A stretch of 25,028 nucleotides of DNA, taken from contig JBKPAK010000239.1 of the NCBI GenBank assembly GCA_046726415.1, positions 1-25,028 of the forward strand, given 5' to 3'. Source of the stretch: Candidatus Methylomirabilota bacterium (GTDB lineage Bacteria; Methylomirabilota; Methylomirabilia; Rokubacteriales; CSP1-6). The position numbers and the translations under genes are program-made. The notes under the pieces were generated by a model that had not been told where the DNA came from, did no database searches, and saw nothing but the letters and a program-made list of their open reading frames with translations. Shown here piece after piece: positions 3,065 through 24,012 of the stretch. How positions within the stretch are numbered: position 1 is the first letter of the stretch; each line of letters starts with the position of its first letter.

Positions 3065-3148
3065 ACGCCAGCATGCCGACGCAGCCGTACATGACGGCAG
3101 GGAGTATCAGCAGCAGAATACCCGCCATCTTCTCGATTACGGGCCCAT
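3065..3148 (-). pseudogene. N-terminal remnant of small membrane protein
   Basis: ATG GGC CCG TAA TCG AGA AGA then a frame slip into AGILLLILPAVMYGCVGML; reconstructs to MGP(E)SRR(L)AGILLLILPAVMYG. Confidence 0.35.
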
Positions 3149-3204
3149 GGGGCTCGTGCGTGCGCGTGCAACCTCCAGCCCACGCGGGGCACGACCCCGC
3201 GCGT

Positions 3205-4593
3205 CTATGCCAGCACGGAGGCGAGTCGCTTGACACCCTCGACGATCGCGGTGTGGTTCAGGGTGCCGTAGCCCAGCAGCAGAGCGGGCGGTCCCGGGTG
3301 CTGCGCACGATGCGCGTGGACTCCGTACACGGCGACGGAGAGCCTGGCCGCGGCGTCGATGACCTTTTGCTCGTCCGCGCCTGGTTCGAGCTCCACCAGC
3401 AGATGCAGCCCCGCGGCGACGCCGTGGACACGGAGTCCCGGCGCGAGCTTGCGAAGGGCGGCAACCAGAACGTCGCGGCGGCGCCGATAGAGCAGCCGCA
3501 TCCGTCGCAGGTGGCGGTCAAGCTCTCCCCGCTCGAGAAAGTCGGCGTAGGCGAGCTGGTCCAGGGCGGGCGAGCCCATGTCTTCCCGGCCCTTGAGCTG
3601 GGCGACCTCCGCCACGAACTCCCCGGGCAGCACGAGCCAACCGAGACGCAGAGCAGGGGCCAGTGTCTTGCTAACGGACCCGGCGTAGATGACACGGTCG
3701 GGGGCGAGTCCTTGCAGCGCCCCGATCGGCTCCCGGTCGTACCGATACTCCGCGTCGTAGTCGTCCTCGATCACTATCGCTCCGCGCGTGGCCGCCCAAT
3801 CGAGCAGTGCCGCTCGGCGCTCCGGGGCGAGAACGGCGCCGGTGGGGAACTGATGGGCCGGCGTCACGACCACGGCGCCGGCATCGACGGTGCGCAGGCG
3901 CTCCATGCGCAATCCGCTCTGGTCGACGGGAATCGGAGTCAGCCTCAGGCCCAGCGCCTGCATGGTGGCGCGGTGTACCGCGTGGCTCGGGTCCTCGACG
4001 ACGACGCGCGTGACCTCCCGCGCTCGAAGAGCCTGACACACGAGCCTCAACCCCTGGGCGAACCCTGTGCAGAGGACCACGTGGCCGGCGTGCGCGGCCG
4101 TACCCCGCACACGGTTGAGATAGGCCGACAACGCCTGGCGAAGCGGGGCGACGCCCCTGGGGTCGGGGTAGCCGAACGCCGCGCCCGGGGCGGAGGTGAG
4201 CACGCGGCGTAGCGACATCAACCACGCCCGGCGAGGAAACATCTCGGCGTCGGGCACCCCGGGCCGAAAGTCGTAGCGCATCGGTGGCGCGACTCGCTCG
4301 ACCGGCACGGCGGGCTCGACTTTCGATTCGCGAGTGGCCACTCGCGTCGCCGAGCCCCGACGCGCCGTCAGATAACCCTCGGCGAGGAGCTGCTCATAGG
4401 CCTCGACAACGACGCCGCGAGAGAGCCCCAGGTCAGCCGCGAGAGCCCGACTCGACGGCAGGGGGGTCCCCGGCCGGAGCCGGCCGACGCGAATCGCGTC
4501 GCGCAGCTCCCGCTCGAACTGGGCGCGCAACGGCGTGCCAGGGCGCCGCTCCACGCGAAGCAGGATCTCAGGTCGAGAAGTGGTCCTCTTCAT
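3205..4593 (-). CDS. MocR/GabR family regulator (GntR wHTH plus PLP-dependent aminotransferase-like domain)
   Basis: LPSSRALAADLGLSRGVVVEAYEQLLAEGYL; VTPAHQFPTG; IEDDYDAEYRY; GSVSKTLAPALRLGW (PLP lysine). Confidence 0.96.
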   Translation of the reverse strand: MKRTTSRPEILLRVERRPGTPLRAQFERELRDAIRVGRLRPGTPLPSSRALAADLGLSRGVVVEAYEQLLAEGYLTARRGSATRVATRESKVEPAVPVERVAPPMRYDFRPGVPDAEMFPRRAWLMSLRRVLTSAPGAAFGYPDPRGVAPLRQALSAYLNRVRGTAAHAGHVVLCTGFAQGLRLVCQALRAREVTRVVVEDPSHAVHRATMQALGLRLTPIPVDQSGLRMERLRTVDAGAVVVTPAHQFPTGAVLAPERRAALLDWAATRGAIVIEDDYDAEYRYDREPIGALQGLAPDRVIYAGSVSKTLAPALRLGWLVLPGEFVAEVAQLKGREDMGSPALDQLAYADFLERGELDRHLRRMRLLYRRRRDVLVAALRKLAPGLRVHGVAAGLHLLVELEPGADEQKVIDAAARLSVAVYGVHAHRAQHPGPPALLLGYGTLNHTAIVEGVKRLASVLA

Positions 4594-12065: not shown

Positions 12066-12977
12066 TCACTCCTGCCGGCAGTAGCTGGGAACCCACGTCC
12101 GCTCGAGCAGATCCGCCGGCACGTCGCTGTAGTCGAAGCTCAATCCGTCTTGAATCATCTGGTTGATGTCAAAGAGATACACGCTCTCGGGAACGTCGCG
12201 AAGAAAGGCGCGGAACAGTGGCCCTACGATCCAGCGCGCCATCCGGGTCCCCCGGCGGCCGAGGAAGTTTCGGCGCTGGCCGATGTGGGCGAGCTCGTCA
12301 ACCATGATCTCATGCAGCAATTCGCGAATGCGCTGGCAAGCCTCCGGCTCATCGCCGAGCAGCTGATCCAACAGCGCGTCGACATGGCGGTAGAACGTGA
12401 TCCCGAGCAGCTCGGTGACGAACGCGGGGGGATCCTTGACGGCGTTGGGGATGCCCGGGAAGAGGCGATAGAGTCGTTGCTTCAGGGGGCTGAGAGGCAA
12501 CCAGGCGACCTGGTCGAGCTGAACGGTTCGAAAGATCTCGTCGAAGTAGCGCATGTGGCAGAACTCCTCGGCGAGATGGTAGCGACTGATCTTCGCGGTG
12601 GTCGTCCTCGACTGTTCCAGGCGCAGGGTAGCATCCCAGGCCGCCGAGATGCCCACCCACTCGTGGCGCGCGACCTTGTAGAGGCACGTGAACAGGAGGG
12701 TTTTCCGGTCGATGGTGGCCGGATCGTCTCGAAACGCGACGTGGTTGCGATAGAACTGCGCGGGGTCGGCTAGGGGGCGCCGCGAACGGACGGGTCGCGC
12801 TCGAAAGGCACGGAGCTTCTGGCGCTTCGCCGCGAGGTCTTTCTCGGCTTCGAAGAGCTCGCCGTTCTGTGAGCGGGTGAAGGCGAGGTAGTCCTCGAAG
12901 TTCGCCTGTCGTTCGCGCGGGGTGGCGTCGGTGAAGATCGAACGGTAGTGGCCATTCTGGTGGGTCCGACTCGGCAT
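12066..12977 (-). CDS. Ferritin-like diiron-carboxylate protein
   Basis: Four-helix-bundle ligand pattern: RHEW...AEEFCH...TELLG...VDELAH (two ExxH motifs). Confidence 0.7.
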   Translation of the reverse strand: MPSRTHQNGHYRSIFTDATPRERQANFEDYLAFTRSQNGELFEAEKDLAAKRQKLRAFRARPVRSRRPLADPAQFYRNHVAFRDDPATIDRKTLLFTCLYKVARHEWVGISAAWDATLRLEQSRTTTAKISRYHLAEEFCHMRYFDEIFRTVQLDQVAWLPLSPLKQRLYRLFPGIPNAVKDPPAFVTELLGITFYRHVDALLDQLLGDEPEACQRIRELLHEIMVDELAHIGQRRNFLGRRGTRMARWIVGPLFRAFLRDVPESVYLFDINQMIQDGLSFDYSDVPADLLERTWVPSYCRQE

Positions 12978-13017: not shown

Positions 13018-13437
13018 TCATTCTGGTTCGGCGGGAATCAAGAGGACGCGCGTCCGGCGGACGCTGATGCCTTCGGTCGCGTCCCCATTCGGCCGGGCGA
13101 TGACTAAGCGCACGCCGTGCCGCGCCGTGACCAGGACCAAGGTCGCTTCCCCCACGCGCAGGTACCACGCGCGATCGCCCACGCGGAGGCGTTGGCTCAG
13201 GATGAGACCGAATAGCGCGCTGACCGGCCTCCAACGCGCGCGCAGAGGCGCAACGAAGAGGCCGGCGACGAGAACCACCAGCGCGAGAATGACTGTGCGC
13301 CTGGCTCCGAGCCCAAGTCCGGAGAGCACCCCCCAGAGCGCGCCCCACGCCAGGAGGGCATCGACCACGCGCAGGGCGCGGGCACGAGCGGTCCAGCGGG
13401 CGATGACAGGAGGCAGGGGTTTGAGGGGCGTTGGCAT
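13018..13437 (-). CDS. Hypothetical membrane protein
   Basis: Two to three hydrophobic helices followed by a beta-rich tail starting LRVGDRAWY; start at ATG 13437. Confidence 0.65.
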   Translation of the reverse strand: MPTPLKPLPPVIARWTARARALRVVDALLAWGALWGVLSGLGLGARRTVILALVVLVAGLFVAPLRARWRPVSALFGLILSQRLRVGDRAWYLRVGEATLVLVTARHGVRLVIARPNGDATEGISVRRTRVLLIPAEPE

Positions 13438-13608
13438 GACCGATCGTCTTGAGTGTGCCGTCATGCGGCCGAGCTGTCGAGGGGATATGTGCGGAGCCCG
13501 CTGACCGGTCTGACCGGCGCAGAGAGGGCGCTGGGCATTCAGCCTGTGGGACGCCGGTTCGAGTGCCTGGTCGACGAGGGCGGCCGCAGCTCCGATGGCG
13601 TCCCGGGA

Positions 13609-13971
13609 TTACTTCACCATGGACTTGAGAGTGCTCATCTGCTTCTGCAGATCGCTCAGATCGGTCGCGAGCTGTGGGAGCCGGGTCGCCTCGACCGGCC
13701 GCTCGGCCTCGCTCTGGAGCGAGTTGGCCTTGGCGAGGAGGTCGTCGGCCTGCTCCACCTGTTGGGGCGCGAGCTTGCCGCTGCTCTTCATGGACGTGAG
13801 CTCCGCCACCATGTCCCTCGCCTGCTTCAGCAGCGCATCCTTGGAGAGCCCGCCGGTGGGAAGCGATCCGACCCCCGGGACCTGAACGCCCCCCGGGAGC
13901 TGCGCGAGCGCCGCTCCTGTCGTCATGAGAAGTCCCACCACGAGCCACGCGCCGATCAGCCGTCGCTTCAT
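13609..13971 (-). CDS. Hypothetical secreted helical protein
   Basis: Signal peptide MKRRLIGAWLVVGLLMTTGAALA-Q, Pro/Gly linker, amphipathic helices; GGGGAG SD. Confidence 0.75.
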   Translation of the reverse strand: MKRRLIGAWLVVGLLMTTGAALAQLPGGVQVPGVGSLPTGGLSKDALLKQARDMVAELTSMKSSGKLAPQQVEQADDLLAKANSLQSEAERPVEATRLPQLATDLSDLQKQMSTLKSMVK

Positions 13972-14065
13972 CACTGCTACTCCCCCTGGAGGCTTGCCCG
14001 ATTGAATCGCGCTCGCCGGCGCTGAACACTCGAATCTTGGGGCTATATGCCAACCACCGCCGGCG

Positions 14066-14611
14066 CTATGCGGCGCGCTGCTGAGTGCGACCGCTTTCCT
14101 TCGAGCGTGAGGAACGGCCAGCCTTGGCCCGCGTCGCACCTCTTCGTGCCGCAGACGTCGACTTTGTCCGCTCGGCTGTCTTTCGCTTCTTCCAGTACGC
14201 CCTCATCCGCCGCGCCGCCGCCCGGCGAGCCGCCGGGCTCATCCGAGAACGTCGGGGCTTCGTCCGAGCCCTTGCCGCACCATTCTCGCCCGGCGACGAG
14301 CCTGGCTGGTGCGTCGCCGCCCTTCCCCCCTTGTGCGTCACGCTCATATGCCGGCCCAGATGCAGTGGAAGGGCGAAGGTCCGGCCGCATTCGGAGCAGG
14401 TGAGTGGCTTGGCGCCGCGCGACGCGGATTGACGGCGCCGAGATGATCTCCGCGGGACACCCCGAGAGCTGTTGCCGCCGATGGGCTCCAACCGATAGCC
14501 GAGCCGCGCCAAGACCTCGCGGAGATCGGCGAGGAGTTTTTCCTCGCGCTTGAGCACGGCCTGTTTCTCGGCGGCCAGGGCTTGGAAGGCTGCGTGAAGG
14601 CCAGTTTTCAT
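14066..14611 (-). CDS. Basic protein with N-terminal coiled coil, C2H2 zinc finger and Arg-rich helix
   Basis: KPLTCSECGRTFALPLHLGRHMSVTH (C-x2-C-x12-H-x4-H, 14333-14398); RRSRMSPAARRAAARRMRAYWKKRK; AAGGAG SD upstream. Confidence 0.85.
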   Translation of the reverse strand: MKTGLHAAFQALAAEKQAVLKREEKLLADLREVLARLGYRLEPIGGNSSRGVPRRSSRRRQSASRGAKPLTCSECGRTFALPLHLGRHMSVTHKGGRAATHQPGSSPGENGAARARTKPRRSRMSPAARRAAARRMRAYWKKRKTAERTKSTSAARRGATRAKAGRSSRSKESGRTQQRAA

Positions 14612-14840
14612 CGTCCAGACTCCTTCGGGTCGGATCGACCGCTGAGCAAGACCAGACTACCCTTTTCCTGCATCGCCGCAAAAGAATCTCCAGCGCGAAA
14701 CGGGTCAAACAGGAGCGCCGTCGTGCTGTGGCGTCAGGTGGACCATCTGAACGCCGTCGCCGACAATAGGAGGGCTGGTCCGTCTTCAGCCAGTTTGCCG
14801 CGACAGCCGCCGTATTGATCGGTCAGACCGCCTCAATGCT

Positions 14841-14856
14841 TGCATATCATGTGCCG
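14841..14856 (-). promoter_or_regulatory. Putative sigma54 (-24/-12) promoter
   Basis: Minus strand CGGCACATGATATGCA gives GG-N10-GC, close to TGGCAC-N5-TTGCW; points toward the zinc-finger gene. Confidence 0.4.
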
Positions 14857-15029
14857 ACGGTCATGGGCCCCGGCCGGACTGAGCTGCTCTCATCGCATCG
14901 TGGCATCTTCGACGGAGATGGAGAATACCCTGCGTTCCCGACGGCCATGGGCGAACATACCCAGAGTGTCAGCAAGTGAGCATTGACCGTCTGGTTCGCC
15001 GACAGACGCCTGGGACTTGCCTTCTCTGC

Positions 15030-15080
15030 CATTCCTCCCCCGAGACCCTGATTTCATTCCTCCCCCGAGACCCTGATTTC
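15030..15080. repeat. Perfect 25-bp tandem duplication
   Basis: CATTCCTCCCCCGAGACCCTGATTT at 15030-15054 and 15055-15079. Confidence 0.92.
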
Positions 15081-15316
15081 CGCAGAGCCCGCGTGTGAGT
15101 GAGCGGCTCGAGCCGATGCCGTCGTCGACCGACGCTCTTCAGTTCAATGGATATGTACGGCGCGAAGCACGGGTCGACGCCAATAGGGGAATTGCCACTG
15201 CGCACAGCCAGGCGACCCCGCGGAGGGATCAGGGGATGGGAACAGTTCGGCCGACGGTTACCGTCGGTGACGCGGGCATCGACGACGAGCGGGCAGCGCC
15301 ACTGGCGAGCGTCTCA

Positions 15317-15493
15317 TCACACTGCCTCATCCGCGATCGAAGAGTGGCGCCAGATGTCGGCCAGATCGGCGTCGAGCCCCGACTCGTCGAAGGTGATGCC
15401 GTGTTCGGCGAACACCGCTCGAATGACCGACCTCGACCCCTCCTGTCGCGTGATTGTCCGTCCCGGGATGATCACCAGGCCCGCCCCCTTCAT
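15317..15493 (-). pseudogene. Degraded GNAT acetyltransferase N-terminal remnant
   Basis: 58-aa frame below the ORF-track cutoff containing VIRAVFAEHGITFDESGLDADLADIWRH, resembling GNAT N-termini (x-VFxEYGxxFDxxGxDADLxDI). Confidence 0.5.
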
Positions 15494-20457: not shown

Positions 20458-21756
20458 TTAGGCTAGCGACTTCTGCAGGCTGGCCAGCTCCTTGAGCCCC
20501 TTGGGTACGGGGGTGGCGCCCCGGATGATGTTGTGGACGGTGGCCACCGCCTTGGTGTCGTACTCGCCGTACCACGGCTCCTTGTAGGCCGCGATGACCT
20601 TCCCCTTCTTGTATTGCTCGCGCAGCAGCTTGAGGTCGATCCAGCGGTCGTACGACTGGATGATCTCGGGATGGTCATACATCTCCGGATACGGGTTATC
20701 GAGCCCGGAGATCAGGCACCACTGGCGCTGAACGTACCAGTCGCCGTTCAGATTCCCCCCCAGAAAGCGCGTGAACTTCCAGGCGTCCTCCAGCACTTTG
20801 GTCTTGGCGTTGACCGTGTAGGAGTCCGTCCACATGTACGTCTGCCCCGTACCGGGGTACATGACCATCTTGGCCTTCTTGGGGGCAAGCTTGGAGTTCT
20901 CGGGCTCCCCGGCGATGGTCTTGAGGTAGTAGGAGTGGTTCGTGTGATAGGCATACCGCCCGGTCCAGAACAGGCGGTGGGTGTCGGTGGAAGAGGTCTT
21001 GGTGAGGACCTCGGGGTTCACCAGCTCGGCCTTGTAGACTTTCTGCCAGCGCTCCATGGCTCGCGCCGCGCCGGGCTCCTGATCGACGATCACCCGGTTC
21101 TTGGCGTCGAACACTTGGGCTCCTTCCGAAAAGCAGTCGGTCATGAACTGCGGCATCGTCCCCGACGGGCTGTTGTTCCAGTTTGGCAGGAACGGCGTGT
21201 CGCTGAGCTTGTCCCGCTTGAGCTTGGTGCAGTGCTCGACCAGCTCGTCCCAGCTCTTGGCGGGCGCCTTGATACCGGCCTGCTGGAGCAGCGGCTCGTT
21301 CACGATCAGAATGAAGAGGCTGGTGAAGTAGGGCAGCCCCAAGAGCTTCGTGCCGTCCTTGCTCTTGAGGCTCTCGAGGTTGGCCGGCGTCATCTTCTTC
21401 TTCAGCTCGTCCACTCCGGGGAGGTCGTCGATCGATCGAATCAGGCCATTCTCGTACCAGCGCTCCCGGTTATTGTGGTTGCAGTACATGACATCGACCA
21501 CTTCACCGGCGAGGGCCCGCGTCTCCATTGTCGGATGGTACTGAGCCCACGGGATGGACTCGTACTTGACCTGCCCCCCGTGCTTTTGATTGTAGAAGTT
21601 CACATAATCCTTCACGGTGTCGGGCTTGAACACCCACCCGGAGAAGCTGATTGGCTTGTCCGCGTGGGCGACCCCGCGGACCGCCTCGGCCAGGGCCGCT
21701 GAAGTCCCGAGCAGTCCCGCGTTCCTCAAAAGCTGCCGCCGGCTGATGGTCGTCAT
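20458..21756 (-). CDS. Extracellular solute-binding protein (family 1) with Tat signal
   Basis: MTTISRRQLLRNAGLLG...AHA twin-arginine leader; GLPY, PAKSWDEL, AWKFTRFL; adjacent to two permeases. Confidence 0.92.
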   Translation of the reverse strand: MTTISRRQLLRNAGLLGTSAALAEAVRGVAHADKPISFSGWVFKPDTVKDYVNFYNQKHGGQVKYESIPWAQYHPTMETRALAGEVVDVMYCNHNNRERWYENGLIRSIDDLPGVDELKKKMTPANLESLKSKDGTKLLGLPYFTSLFILIVNEPLLQQAGIKAPAKSWDELVEHCTKLKRDKLSDTPFLPNWNNSPSGTMPQFMTDCFSEGAQVFDAKNRVIVDQEPGAARAMERWQKVYKAELVNPEVLTKTSSTDTHRLFWTGRYAYHTNHSYYLKTIAGEPENSKLAPKKAKMVMYPGTGQTYMWTDSYTVNAKTKVLEDAWKFTRFLGGNLNGDWYVQRQWCLISGLDNPYPEMYDHPEIIQSYDRWIDLKLLREQYKKGKVIAAYKEPWYGEYDTKAVATVHNIIRGATPVPKGLKELASLQKSLA

Positions 21757-21860
21757 CGGTCTCGTCTCCTCTGGTTCGGGCCCTTTGGCTGCGACGTGCG
21801 ATGCCCCTGGCGTCGCGTCCCGGGGGAGCCCGGGACGCTCGTCGACGAGCCGAGAGGGTC

Positions 21861-22958
21861 CTATTCGTACACGACGACGCTGCGCTTGACCTCGCCCTGC
21901 AGCATCAGGTCGAAGGCGTGGTTCAACTCGGTGAGCGGAAGCCGGCGACTGATCAGCTCGCGGAGCTTGTACTTCTCGGCCATGAACAGATCGATGAGCA
22001 TGGGCACGTCGGTGCGCTGGTGGCCCCCACCGAATGACGTCCCCGTCAGCGTCCGCTGCTGCAGCAAGAGGAGCGGATCGATGGACAGTCGCGTACCGGC
22101 CGGACAGACCCCCACCACCACGGCCATGCCACCGCGATGGATGGAGAGAAAGGCCTGTTCGATCGTCTTCTGGATACCCACGACCTCGAAGGCGTAGTCG
22201 ACGCCTCCCGTGCCGCTGAGAGCCTGTACCCGAGCGATCGGATCGTCCCTGGACGCGTCCACCACGTGCGTGGCCCCGAACTCCTCGGCCCACTCGAGCT
22301 TCTGCTTCACCACGTCTACCGCGATGACCTTCCCAGCCCCCACCAGGCGCGCGGCCTGAATGGTGTTGAGTCCCACCCCGCCGCAGCCGAACACCGCCAC
22401 GCTGGCGCCAGGCGGCACCTTGGCTCGGTTGAACACGGGGCCGGCGCCGGCCAGCACCCCGCAGCTCACCAGGCATACGACATCGAGGGGGGCGTCCTTG
22501 CGGATCGGGATCACGCCCTCCTCGAGGAGCACCGAGTACGTGGCGTAACCGGCGACCTGCAGGTAGTGGTGCAGCCCTTGGCCATTCTTCTGAAAGCGGG
22601 GAGTTCCGTCCAGCATGAACCAGCGCGGCTTGTCGCGCAGCGCGCACATCGTGGGCTGGCCACCGATGCAGTACCAGCACTTGCCGCACGAGGGAATGTA
22701 GCTCGAACAGACGTGATCGCCCGGCGCGACCGTCTCCACACCCGGCCCGACCTTTTCCACGACCCCGGCGGCTTCGTGACCCAGCACCACGGGCAGGGGA
22801 TGCGGAGAGTCCCCCTTGATCACGTGGAGGTCACTGTGACAGACGCCGTTGGCGATCCAGCGGACCCGCACCTCATGGGGCCCGGGCTCCAGTACATCGA
22901 CGTCCTCCACGACCAGTGGCTTGTTGATCTCGTACAGCACGGCGGCAGTGGCCTTCAT
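21861..22958 (-). CDS. Zn-dependent alcohol dehydrogenase (class III-like MDR)
   Basis: GVCHSDLH, GHEAAG, CGKCWYC...C, VFGCGGVGL; AAGGAGG SD before ATG 22958. Confidence 0.96.
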   Translation of the reverse strand: MKATAAVLYEINKPLVVEDVDVLEPGPHEVRVRWIANGVCHSDLHVIKGDSPHPLPVVLGHEAAGVVEKVGPGVETVAPGDHVCSSYIPSCGKCWYCIGGQPTMCALRDKPRWFMLDGTPRFQKNGQGLHHYLQVAGYATYSVLLEEGVIPIRKDAPLDVVCLVSCGVLAGAGPVFNRAKVPPGASVAVFGCGGVGLNTIQAARLVGAGKVIAVDVVKQKLEWAEEFGATHVVDASRDDPIARVQALSGTGGVDYAFEVVGIQKTIEQAFLSIHRGGMAVVVGVCPAGTRLSIDPLLLLQQRTLTGTSFGGGHQRTDVPMLIDLFMAEKYKLRELISRRLPLTELNHAFDLMLQGEVKRSVVVYE

Positions 22959-23169
22959 GAACGCCTCCTTCTGGATCGCGGGCGAGGGCGGTGGTGCGCC
23001 GACCGTCCGAGTGTAAACCACATCGGCCACGGCCGTTCGGTCATGTCCGACCCCGGTCGGCGCGGCGGGCGAGCGAGTAATAGAGGTTTTCGCACGCCAG
23101 CCCAGCGTTTGATGTTTACTGAAACCGTCCGCACGCGGCATCAGATCGACCGCGGGACAGGAGGCCGCT

Positions 23170-24012
23170 ATGGACTTCGGCGTCGTCATGTTTCCCACCA
23201 ACTACGCCATCCAGCCTGACGAACTGGGGCGGGCGCTCGAAGAACGAGGATTCGAGTCGCTGTGGGTGCCCGAGCACACCCACATTCCCGCCAGTCGACG
23301 CAGTCCCTGGCCCGGCGGTGGGCCCCTGCCCAAGGAGTACTGGTCGTCCTACGACCCGTTCGTCGCCCTGATGGCGGCTGGCGCGGCCACCCGCCGGCTG
23401 CGACTGGGTACGGGCATCTGTCTCGTCATCGAGCGCGATCCAATCGTCACGGCGAAGGAGGTCGCTACGCTCGACCGGCTCTCTGGTGGCCGGTTTCTCT
23501 TCGGCATCGGCGGGGGCTGGAACGCCGAGGAGATGGAGCACCATGGGACGAACTTCAAGACGCGGTGGCGCGTCCTTCGCGAGCGGGTGCTGGCCATGAA
23601 GGAGATCTGGACCAAGGACGAGGCGGAGTTTCACGGGGAGTTCGTGCATTTCGACCGGATCTGGTCACAGCCCAAGCCCGCGCAGGCGCCGCATCCGCCA
23701 ATCGTGATCGGCGGCGACGGACCCACCACCTTCGATCGCGTCGTGGAATTCGGGGATGGCTGGATACCCATCCTGCGCCCGGGCGTCAACCCGGTGGCCA
23801 AGATTCCGGCTTTGCGAGAGCGACTCGAGCGCGCCGGCCGCGATCCGGGATCCGTCCCCGTGTCGGTCTTCTTTGCGCCGCCGAAGAAGCCGGATCTCGA
23901 GGGCCTGGCCGCAGCGGGGGTGGCCCGCGCGATCTTCGGTCTCCCGTCGGAGCCTCGGGACGCCGTGCTCCCTCGCCTCGACAAGTACGCGGCGGTGATC
24001 GGGTCGATGTGA
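23170..24012 (+). CDS. LLM class (putative F420-dependent) oxidoreductase, Rv2161c-like
   Basis: GFESLWVPEHTHIP, AKEVATLDRLSGGRFLFGIGGGWNAEE, PKPAQAPHPPIVIGG; AGGAGG SD. Confidence 0.92.
   Translation: MDFGVVMFPTNYAIQPDELGRALEERGFESLWVPEHTHIPASRRSPWPGGGPLPKEYWSSYDPFVALMAAGAATRRLRLGTGICLVIERDPIVTAKEVATLDRLSGGRFLFGIGGGWNAEEMEHHGTNFKTRWRVLRERVLAMKEIWTKDEAEFHGEFVHFDRIWSQPKPAQAPHPPIVIGGDGPTTFDRVVEFGDGWIPILRPGVNPVAKIPALRERLERAGRDPGSVPVSVFFAPPKKPDLEGLAAAGVARAIFGLPSEPRDAVLPRLDKYAAVIGSM

Follow-up and report, generated by a model that had tools for sequence, protein, structure and literature searches.

What does a zinc finger of the eukaryotic type do in a bacterial protein? The question is raised by a stretch of DNA of 25,028 nucleotides (nt) from Candidatus Methylomirabilota bacterium (assembly GCA_046726415.1, contig JBKPAK010000239.1, positions 1 to 25,028), here called the window, in which one gene encodes a small, strongly basic protein carrying a single Cys2His2 (C2H2) finger. 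The classical C2H2 finger is the most common DNA-binding domain of animals and is rare and essentially unstudied in bacteria, where, to our knowledge, the only well-studied Cys2His2 finger is that of Ros/MucR, which differs in fold. The gene in the window is real and conserved, its finger is classical in sequence and predicted fold and not Ros-like, and its product represents a genuine family, so far uncharacterised and of an architecture not described before, rather than a new principle. As to function, sequence and structural model favour a DNA binder that is oligomeric, dependent on zinc and broad in specificity, with an architectural or global-regulator (nucleoid-associated-like) role in the Rokubacteria/Methylomirabilota lineage, a reading whose chances of being right we judge to be about even. 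A nucleoid-protein or silencer role would fit the architecture.

The first step is to establish the gene. Its frame has a G+C fraction of 0.74 at third codon positions (GC3) and of 0.65 at second positions (GC2), a coding signal weaker than that of the neighbouring genes. The high GC2 is due to the Arg, Ala, Ser and Gly content of the product and, as GC3 is only moderate, the status of 14066..14611 as a gene rests on its homologues. A word-seeded phmmer search returned 32 of these at E<=1e-3, all unnamed or 'hypothetical' and from metagenome-derived sources, the best being 94% identical. They rule out a chance open reading frame (ORF) or a wrong frame, and eukaryotic contamination is ruled out by the bacterial neighbours, by a neighbouring gene like that of a Rokubacteria metagenome-assembled genome (MAG; 65% identity) and by the Shine-Dalgarno site. 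In a six-frame search of the window and three fetched loci (L001, L002 and L003; ~60 kb), the regular expression C..C.{12}H.{3,5}H matched finger genes only (one each in the window, L001 and L002, none in L003), and the C2H2 motif is thus not background. The finger match in the window lies at 14333-14398 and belongs to a single gene copy. The protein of 181 amino acids (aa) has a mass of 19.8 kDa, an isoelectric point (pI) of 12.0 and a net charge of +36 (33 Arg and 13 Lys, 1 Asp and 9 Glu).

The finger itself reads K68-P69-L-T-C72-S-E-C75-G-R-T-F79-A-L-P-L-H84-L85-G-R-H88-M-S-V-T-H93, that is C-x2-C-x3-F-x5-L-x2-H-x4-H. The general ligand pattern C-x2-4-C-x12-H-x3-5-H is found in it as C72-x2-C75-x12-H88-x4-H93, with C72, C75, H88 and H93 as the predicted zinc ligands, and helix positions -1, +2, +3 and +6 are occupied by L81, L83, H84 and R87. 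A first-pass annotation of this DNA had proposed a eukaryote-type finger with Phe and Leu as core residues and a 12-residue spacer, and exactly this is seen, F79 and L85 each being kept in 40 of the 41 rows of the cleaned family alignment (A2). In Pfam, residues 71-94 match zf-C2H2_11 (E=1.5e-4, 21.8 bits) and zf-C2H2 (E=1.2e-3, 19.6 bits), and the scan gave nothing credible outside the C2H2 models (one chance match to SSP160, E=7.9); NCBIfam and PHROGs returned no family for the protein. Among the aligned members, 29 of 41 match PF00096 (zf-C2H2) and 31 of 41 match PF16622 (zf-C2H2_11) at E<=0.01.

Searched against the sequences of the PDB, the family profile matches only classical DNA-binding fingers. 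Summed over repeats, E values reach 1.2e-11 for PRDM9 and 1e-10 to 1e-8 for ZNF568 and Aart, while the independent E values of single fingers lie at 0.03-0.9, with a consensus finger and Zif268 among the matches. In these alignments C72 and C75 take the places of both Cys, Phe and Leu correspond to F79 and L85, and the first zinc His pairs with H88; H84 aligns with the His of '-S-H-L-' at helix position +3 of PRDM9 fingers. An unfiltered phmmer search over 1.84 billion representatives gave 3299 matches at E<=1e-3. Among the best 150 of these, most are proteins of 500-2900 aa with 8-39 matched stretches at ~40% identity to residues ~55-98, which look like multi-finger arrays, and ~14 are single-stretch proteins of 109-229 aa that represent the true family. 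AlphaFold2 predicts the finger as a module spanning residues 70-98 (~29 residues), with strands at 70-71 and 78-79 and a helix at 82-98, at a predicted local distance difference test score (pLDDT) of ~90. The best 50 Foldseek matches of the model in the PDB are nearly all classical fingers (ZNF484, ZNF473, Tramtrack, CTCF, Miz-1, PRDM9, Zif268) and also include a designed consensus finger, GAGA factor and TZAP. Their root-mean-square deviations (rmsd) are 1.5-2.9 A over 25-33 columns, those of Tramtrack being 2.8-2.9 A over 32-33 columns and those of Miz-1 1.5-1.8 A over 29-30 columns.

Conservation bears on whether these residues matter. A profile search with A2 extended the family to 103 proteins. 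The first-pass annotation had made its case depend on conserved Cys and His residues, and it is upheld on this point: C75, H88 and H93 are invariant in A2, 40 of its 41 rows have C72, and C-x2-C-x12-H-x4-H is found in 99 of the 103 profile matches. Four matches have no full finger (P0083 with Trp for the first Cys, P0204 ending within the finger, P0032 and P0228 diverging), and by sequence they look like fragments or damaged copies. H84, G86 and R87 are likewise invariant in A2, and R77, F79, A80, L81, P82, L83 and L85 are, like C72, at least 90% conserved. Across the profile matches, HLGRH occurs in 100 of 103 and the longer LPLHLGRH in 83, whereas other parts are less widespread: a [LIF]-G-Y-[RQE]-[LIV] motif that closes the N-terminal domain is found in 66, and a C-terminal motif of the MSPAAR type in 32, being absent from short forms including that of L002. 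All 41 aligned members are basic, with pI values of 10.1-12.0.

Contact positions vary more than any others in eukaryotic finger families, and between paralogous transcription factors they usually diverge. Here, the LPLHLGRH surface is invariant across differing architectures, which favours a generic target of low specificity and would make a regulator with a private operator less likely than an architectural or broad-specificity role. The same invariance leaves room for a protein partner on the hydrophobic L-P-L face. Carried further, the L81-P82-L83 face would be there to dock a conserved partner such as RNA polymerase, with the basic segments as accessories. Hydrophobic residues at the canonical contact positions -1 and +2 (L81 is kept in 39, P82 in 38 and L83 in 40 of 41 rows) and a surface that is the same in all architectures point towards such a protein-interaction finger. 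Still, no conserved partner gene lies nearby and in all architectures the finger has extremely positive flanks, and only a slim chance can be granted to this reading.

The architecture of the protein, as the first-pass annotation had described it, is present, but its finger is not confined to it and occurs in a wider HLGRH group in which the modules are rearranged. The distant profile matches share the finger alone, at 78-83% identity over ~23 residues. In nine proteins an ordinary C2H2 finger comes first and the HLGRH finger second, and a basic linker then leads to a conserved helix at the C-terminus (L-T-V-D-Q-L-x-x-L-K-x-A-V-D-A-R-L-A-E-I). For these two-finger forms, AlphaFold2 run on their alignment (A3) predicts two beta-beta-alpha units and a helix at 114-137 (pLDDT 88-95), and two-finger relatives exceed the curated Pfam cut-offs for zf-C2H2 or zf-C2H2_4 (for example P0210 with 34.8 bits and P0220 with 34.6 bits). 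Eleven other proteins have the finger at their extreme N-terminus, with a basic linker and then an amphipathic helix behind it. Four of the eleven (P0232, P0236, P0238 and P0240) continue through a coiled helix into a C-terminal domain, which in three of the four matches HARE-HTH, a DNA-associated domain, at a sub-threshold E of ~1e-4. As the same finger, linker and helix modules are found in several orders, the recurring unit, judged from sequence and predicted structure, is an HLGRH finger with an Arg/Lys-rich linker and one amphipathic helix, in either order, and the window protein is the Rokubacteria version of it, in which the helix comes first and a further, Arg-rich helix comes last. 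The other HLGRH proteins (P0213, P0225 and P0236 among them, either unnamed or called 'uncharacterized C2H2 Zn-finger protein') thus resemble the window protein in the finger, the basic linker and a confidently predicted amphipathic helix. They differ from it in having the finger first and the helix last, some of them with a HARE-HTH-like domain or a further finger at the start, and they have neither its N-terminal GYRLEP domain nor its MSPAARR helix.

These rearrangements also bear on RNA as a possible target, with the Arg-rich helix serving as an arginine-rich motif and the finger sitting on RNA as some C2H2 fingers do. The pI of 12 and the Arg-rich helix, in which a Trp is conserved, would suit an RNA-binding protein, and some relatives show weak matches to zf-C2H2_jaz, a double-stranded-RNA finger, although on their first, non-HLGRH finger. 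However, 71 of the 103 profile matches have no Arg-rich helix, the distant relatives carry a HARE-HTH-like domain and the genomic neighbourhood is neither ribosomal nor RNA-processing, all of which makes RNA binding hardly probable.

The elements that the first-pass annotation had named, from N-terminal helix to basic tail, are all present in the ORF translation (RMSPAARRAAARRMRAYWKKRK occupies residues 123-144 and the basic tail follows), and its layout of helix, basic linker, finger and basic helix agrees with the modules that AlphaFold2 predicts from A2. The model as a whole has a mean pLDDT of 71.9 and a predicted template modelling score of 0.26, values that are low because confident modules are joined by disorder, as would be expected. 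In the N-terminal part, strongly hydrophobic columns follow a spacing of 3-4 (5, 6, 9, 12, 19, 26, 27, 30, 33, 34, 37, 39, 41 and 44); L12 is invariant and K16, A18, R22, L26, L30, L34, G38 and Y39 are at least 90% conserved. The conserved polar residues of the helix are K16, R22 and E23, of which K16 and E23 stand at core-type positions. This heptad-like pattern in a confidently predicted lone helix is compatible with self-association. A complex prediction with two copies of residues 1-46 and A2 scored 0.02 against a mark of 0.42 and weighs neither way on pairing. The linker holds 7 Arg, 1 Lys and no acidic residue (net +8), with K68 in 28 and P69 in 23 of 41 rows, and the Arg-rich helix, which contains the conserved Trp, has a net charge of +11 over 26 residues.

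Searched separately, the modules outside the finger found few counterparts. The C-terminal 66 residues have no match among PDB sequences, and the N-terminal 48 residues match only two designed proteins there (E=1.3). As a query of their own, the same 48 residues recovered only the two closest homologues among 88 candidates, a result that is silent on whether the module occurs elsewhere. In the ESM Atlas, residues 112-165 had unnamed clusters as their best matches, with scores of 0.84-0.85. Residues 1-26 of P0231 (…LSEALKKAWKARRAKQ) resemble, as judged by eye, the C-terminal Arg-rich, Trp-containing helix of the window protein, and this helix may therefore be a movable module as well.

A helix suited to dimerisation, as the model and A2 suggest, would also serve a sequence-specific transcription factor, which, as a dimer, would govern a defined regulon by setting two single fingers, each assisted by basic arms as in GAGA factor, on a bipartite operator. 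The gene is present as a single copy in the window, the base-contact positions are strictly conserved within orthologues, and single-finger complexes (GAGA/DNA, 1yui; TZAP; ZBTB48) are among the fold matches, though at non-significant E. Conversely, the same recognition helix is kept in unrelated architectures, no neighbour is conserved beyond general synteny, and a repeat search of three upstream regions gave no common motif and no convincing palindrome. Weighing both sides, we consider a dedicated regulator of this kind unlikely but deserving of serious attention.

If the protein is instead an architectural DNA binder of broad specificity, as preferred here, the following mechanism can be proposed. 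C72, C75, H88 and H93 would hold one zinc ion in the predicted beta-beta-alpha finger. The finger helix would enter the major groove, where H84 (+3) and R87 (+6) could contact guanines of a short G-rich triplet; under the contact rules of Zif268-type fingers, a His at +3 and an Arg at +6 read G. The Arg-rich linker and the Arg-rich helix would clamp the backbone or the minor groove from both sides and so supply the affinity that a single finger lacks. In GAGA factor, too, a single finger is aided in DNA binding by flanking basic regions. Finally, the N-terminal amphipathic helix with GYRLEP would pair or bundle subunits, and two or more fingers could then act together. This proposal is supported by the concentration of positive charge in three segments (linker +8, Arg-rich helix +11, tail +9), by the chromosomal, metabolic context of the gene and by the lack of relatives in plasmid and phage collections.

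A more specific form of such a role would make the protein a strict xenogeneic silencer, the Rokubacteria analogue of H-NS, Lsr2, MvaT and MucR, polymerising on AT-rich foreign DNA in a genome of 67% G+C. The high-G+C host, the N-terminal helix with a C-terminal DNA-binding layout and the basic disordered linkers would suit it, and MucR offers a precedent for a zinc-finger protein in this role (PMC9779718). At the sequence level, however, Histone_HNS, Lsr2, MvaT and ROS_MUCR are unmatched in Pfam at E<=10, and outside the finger helix no RGR or AT-hook is conserved (R65 is found in 12 and G66 in 23 of 40 rows). His at +3 and Arg at +6 predict major-groove contacts with G instead of AT-rich minor-groove reading. 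In addition, one helix provides one obvious interface, whereas filament formers need two, and the family is rare among species-representative genomes, as far as an exact nine-residue pattern and incomplete MAGs can tell. A strict silencer is therefore very unlikely.

This rarity emerged from a scan of 185,579 species-representative genomes, among them incomplete MAGs, for exactly FALPLHLGR. It gave 23 stretches, three of which passed tblastn. The copy in L001, a 'Candidatus Rokubacteria' MAG, is 154 aa long and keeps the N-terminal domain with a differing basic tail, and that in L002, a 'Candidatus Methylomirabilia' MAG, is an 86-aa form with helix and finger only; both have an ordinary chromosomal context. 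The third, L003 (Pyrinomonadaceae), was rejected, since its FALPLHLGR lies in a frame that has no ORF and no Cys or His. With tblastn, the window protein had no match in plasmid or phage collections, P0236 and P0213 were unmatched in plasmids and P0241 was unmatched in phages. The ESM Atlas, taken for leads only, gave an unnamed Methylomirabilota cluster as the best match (score 0.89), and among the lower-ranked, equally unnamed clusters zf-C2H2 is found in several phyla as well as in phages and archaea. The homologue pairs P0013/P0015 and P0019/P0021 each report an equal longest contig (25404 and 3241, respectively), which hints that some genomes have two finger paralogues on one contig.

Several observations weigh against the proposed broad-specificity role or its mechanism. 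Two confirmed window-type copies (L001 and L002) in the exact-pattern scan are unlike what a core nucleoid protein would show. The scan of 13400-15400 and the three upstream regions revealed no operator, repeat or common upstream motif. At the level of the finger, the invariant H84 could serve as an alternative zinc ligand, and Leu at -1 and +2 with Pro at +1 are unusual base-contact residues that could form a protein-binding surface; zinc and DNA binding are themselves inferred from sequence and model. In Foldseek against the PDB, no match reached E<=1e-3 and every E was >0.2, because the finger is short and the remainder is helix or disorder. Likewise, the window protein stays under the curated Pfam cut-offs (19.6 versus 25.2 bits for zf-C2H2, 21.8 versus 27 for zf-C2H2_11). 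The match to zf-C2H2, for which the first-pass annotation had proposed a check, is present at the E values given and stays short of the cut-offs. A single short finger rarely reaches such a cut-off, so that this shortfall lowers formal membership only.

The coordinates of the gene and its modules are collected in the table.

Table. Features of the finger gene and its product in the window; coordinates are window positions.
Feature	Positions	Strand	Basis and remarks
Complete gene for the C2H2 protein	14066..14611	-	ORF list, 181 aa, stop codon 14066-14068; 32 homologues, 103 profile matches
Shine-Dalgarno-like AAGGAG	14620..14625	-	ATG 8 nt further on; homologue N-termini align at the same Met
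Residues 1-46, conserved amphipathic helix 2-37, then G38-Y39-R-L-E-P-[IVL]; putative oligomerisation module	14474..14611	-	AlphaFold2 pLDDT 84-97
Residues 47-69, disordered basic linker ending G-x-K-P (here G-A-K-P)	14405..14473	-	pLDDT <50 for 47-65
Residues 70-95, classical beta-beta-alpha C2H2 finger (in sequence and predicted fold)	14327..14404	-	Regular expression, Pfam, PDB profile, AlphaFold2, Foldseek
Residues 96-120, disordered Gly/Ser/Pro/Ala spacer	14252..14326	-	pLDDT <50 for 98-115; variable in A2
Residues 121-146, conserved Arg-rich helix RRSRMSPAARRAAARRMRAYWKKRK	14174..14251	-	AlphaFold2 helix 126-165, pLDDT 84-94 for 121-150
Residues 147-181, variable basic tail	14069..14173	-	Net +9; pLDDT 50-63; length and sequence differ among homologues

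The surroundings of the gene encode a Rieske oxygenase, a PIG-L deacetylase, ABC transporter components, glyoxalases, a cold-shock protein and a MocR-type regulator. One neighbour, at 12066-12977 (reverse strand), encodes a 303-aa protein that is 65% identical to the product of L001 4251-5234 (reverse strand), which is likewise encoded beside the finger gene; for this reason, the window most likely comes from an organism related to that of L001. In both loci this neighbour lies no further than ~1-1.5 kb from the finger gene, whose strand it shares in one of them but not in the other. It belongs to no Pfam family and has two E-x-x-H motifs (AEEFCH and DELAH), which we take to resemble di-iron sites. 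Beyond it, the window, L001 and L002 have no gene context in common, and thus no operon partner is suggested.

Around the finger gene (13400-15400), a scan for promoters and terminators gave no promoter-like site and one terminator-like site, which lies inside the finger gene on the opposite strand and is at chance level; Rfam had no match in the window at the gathering score. Upstream, 14612-15316 forms a gap of ~700 nt without a convincing ORF, Rfam match or sigma-70-like promoter before the next plausible gene, which is unusually long for so gene-dense a window. An exact 25-nt tandem duplication, CATTCCTCCCCCGAGACCCTGATTT, stands in two copies at 15030-15079, in non-coding DNA ~420-470 nt upstream of the start of the finger gene. 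Directly downstream, after a gap of 95 nt, a small ORF at 13609-13971 (reverse strand) has no family match and is not found beside the finger gene in L001 or L002; from an internal Met it opens with MKRRLIGAWLVVGLLMTTGAALA, which resembles a signal peptide, and the remainder is helical and rich in Gln, Leu and Ser. Two further ORFs of the window raise questions of annotation. The 743-aa ORF at 20458-22689 (reverse strand) matches a solute-binding protein in residues 360-645 only, and its upstream part overlaps, in another frame, a zinc-dependent alcohol dehydrogenase gene at 21861-23201 (reverse strand); its true start is probably internal. Long ORFs at 3073-4212 (forward strand) and 3205-4593 (reverse strand) overlap on opposite strands, both with high GC3, and only the latter has family matches (GntR and class I/II aminotransferase, MocR-like).

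How new is such a protein? The first-pass annotation suspected an undescribed family, and no curated family for it was found in Pfam or NCBIfam. A literature search, with subscription journals outside its coverage, found no paper on the family, on the HLGRH signature or on C2H2 fingers of Rokubacteria. The finger type itself is not new to prokaryotes, since classical C2H2 matches are already on record there, though rare: in one survey, a table counts 59 prokaryotic proteins with PF00096 and gives a genomic distribution of 0.03 (PMC7017128). The HLGRH family offers a simple system for how a single finger gains useful affinity, a data point in the debate on the origin of eukaryotic fingers and, for the uncultured soil phylum Rokubacteria, a candidate for a chromatin or global-regulator protein. 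If the protein proves to be an ordinary local regulator, its interest would be modest. The most far-reaching possibility is that the true classical C2H2 finger (12-residue spacer, beta-beta-alpha fold, GxKP) has a native bacterial lineage in the HLGRH proteins, which would be a better candidate than Ros/MucR for the prokaryotic counterpart, as ancestor or recipient, of the eukaryotic finger; in Rokubacteria, and independently of MucR, this finger would have been incorporated into a chromatin protein that oligomerises and coats or bridges DNA. We regard this as a doubtful, if attractive, proposition.

Among known systems, H-NS, Lsr2 and MvaT resemble the window protein in architecture only, as small basic proteins with an N-terminal helix, a flexible linker and a C-terminal DNA-binding module. 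There is no homology to them in Pfam or NCBIfam, and the window protein has a zinc finger predicted for the major groove as its module, without a conserved AT-hook-like motif or a sign of a second oligomerisation interface. Ros/MucR (PF05443) shares more features, being bacterial, with one Cys2His2 zinc site, three His near that site and a C-terminal DNA-binding region that is preceded by an N-terminal region for oligomerisation (both putative in the window protein). An H-NS-like role has been proposed for MucR (PMC9779718). The separation from Ros/MucR made in the first-pass annotation is nevertheless sound: ROS_MUCR gave no match, among the distant relatives it is matched by P0239 only (E=0.086), and the spacer has 12 residues, as opposed to the 9 given for Ros in the same source (PMC9779718). 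As described there, Ros forms a globular domain, 58 residues long and of beta-beta-beta-alpha-alpha fold, around its 9-residue Cys-His spacer (PMC9779718), whereas the window finger is predicted as a minimal beta-beta-alpha unit of ~29 residues with disordered flanks. Moreover, Ros/MucR belongs to alpha-proteobacteria and the window family to a different phylum.

GAGA factor (PDB 1yui) is instructive in another respect, as it suggests that one classical finger with basic flanks could suffice; it ranked 38 in Foldseek (E 1.4), with no significant score in sequence or fold. The window protein differs from it in having basic regions on both sides of the finger, a helix in place of a BTB domain as putative oligomerisation module and a bacterial origin. 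With the classical C2H2 fingers at large (PF00096 and its clan; Zif268, PRDM9, KRAB-ZNF, Miz-1, CTCF), the window finger shares ligand spacing, hydrophobic core and predicted fold, and it is ~40-50% identical to single fingers of this type. The G-x-K-P before it resembles TGEKP, the linker of classical finger arrays. What sets the window protein apart from these is that it is bacterial and has one finger instead of an array, flanked by coiled-coil-like and Arg-rich helices, and that its recognition helix is invariant (LPLHLGRH) where that of classical fingers is hypervariable.

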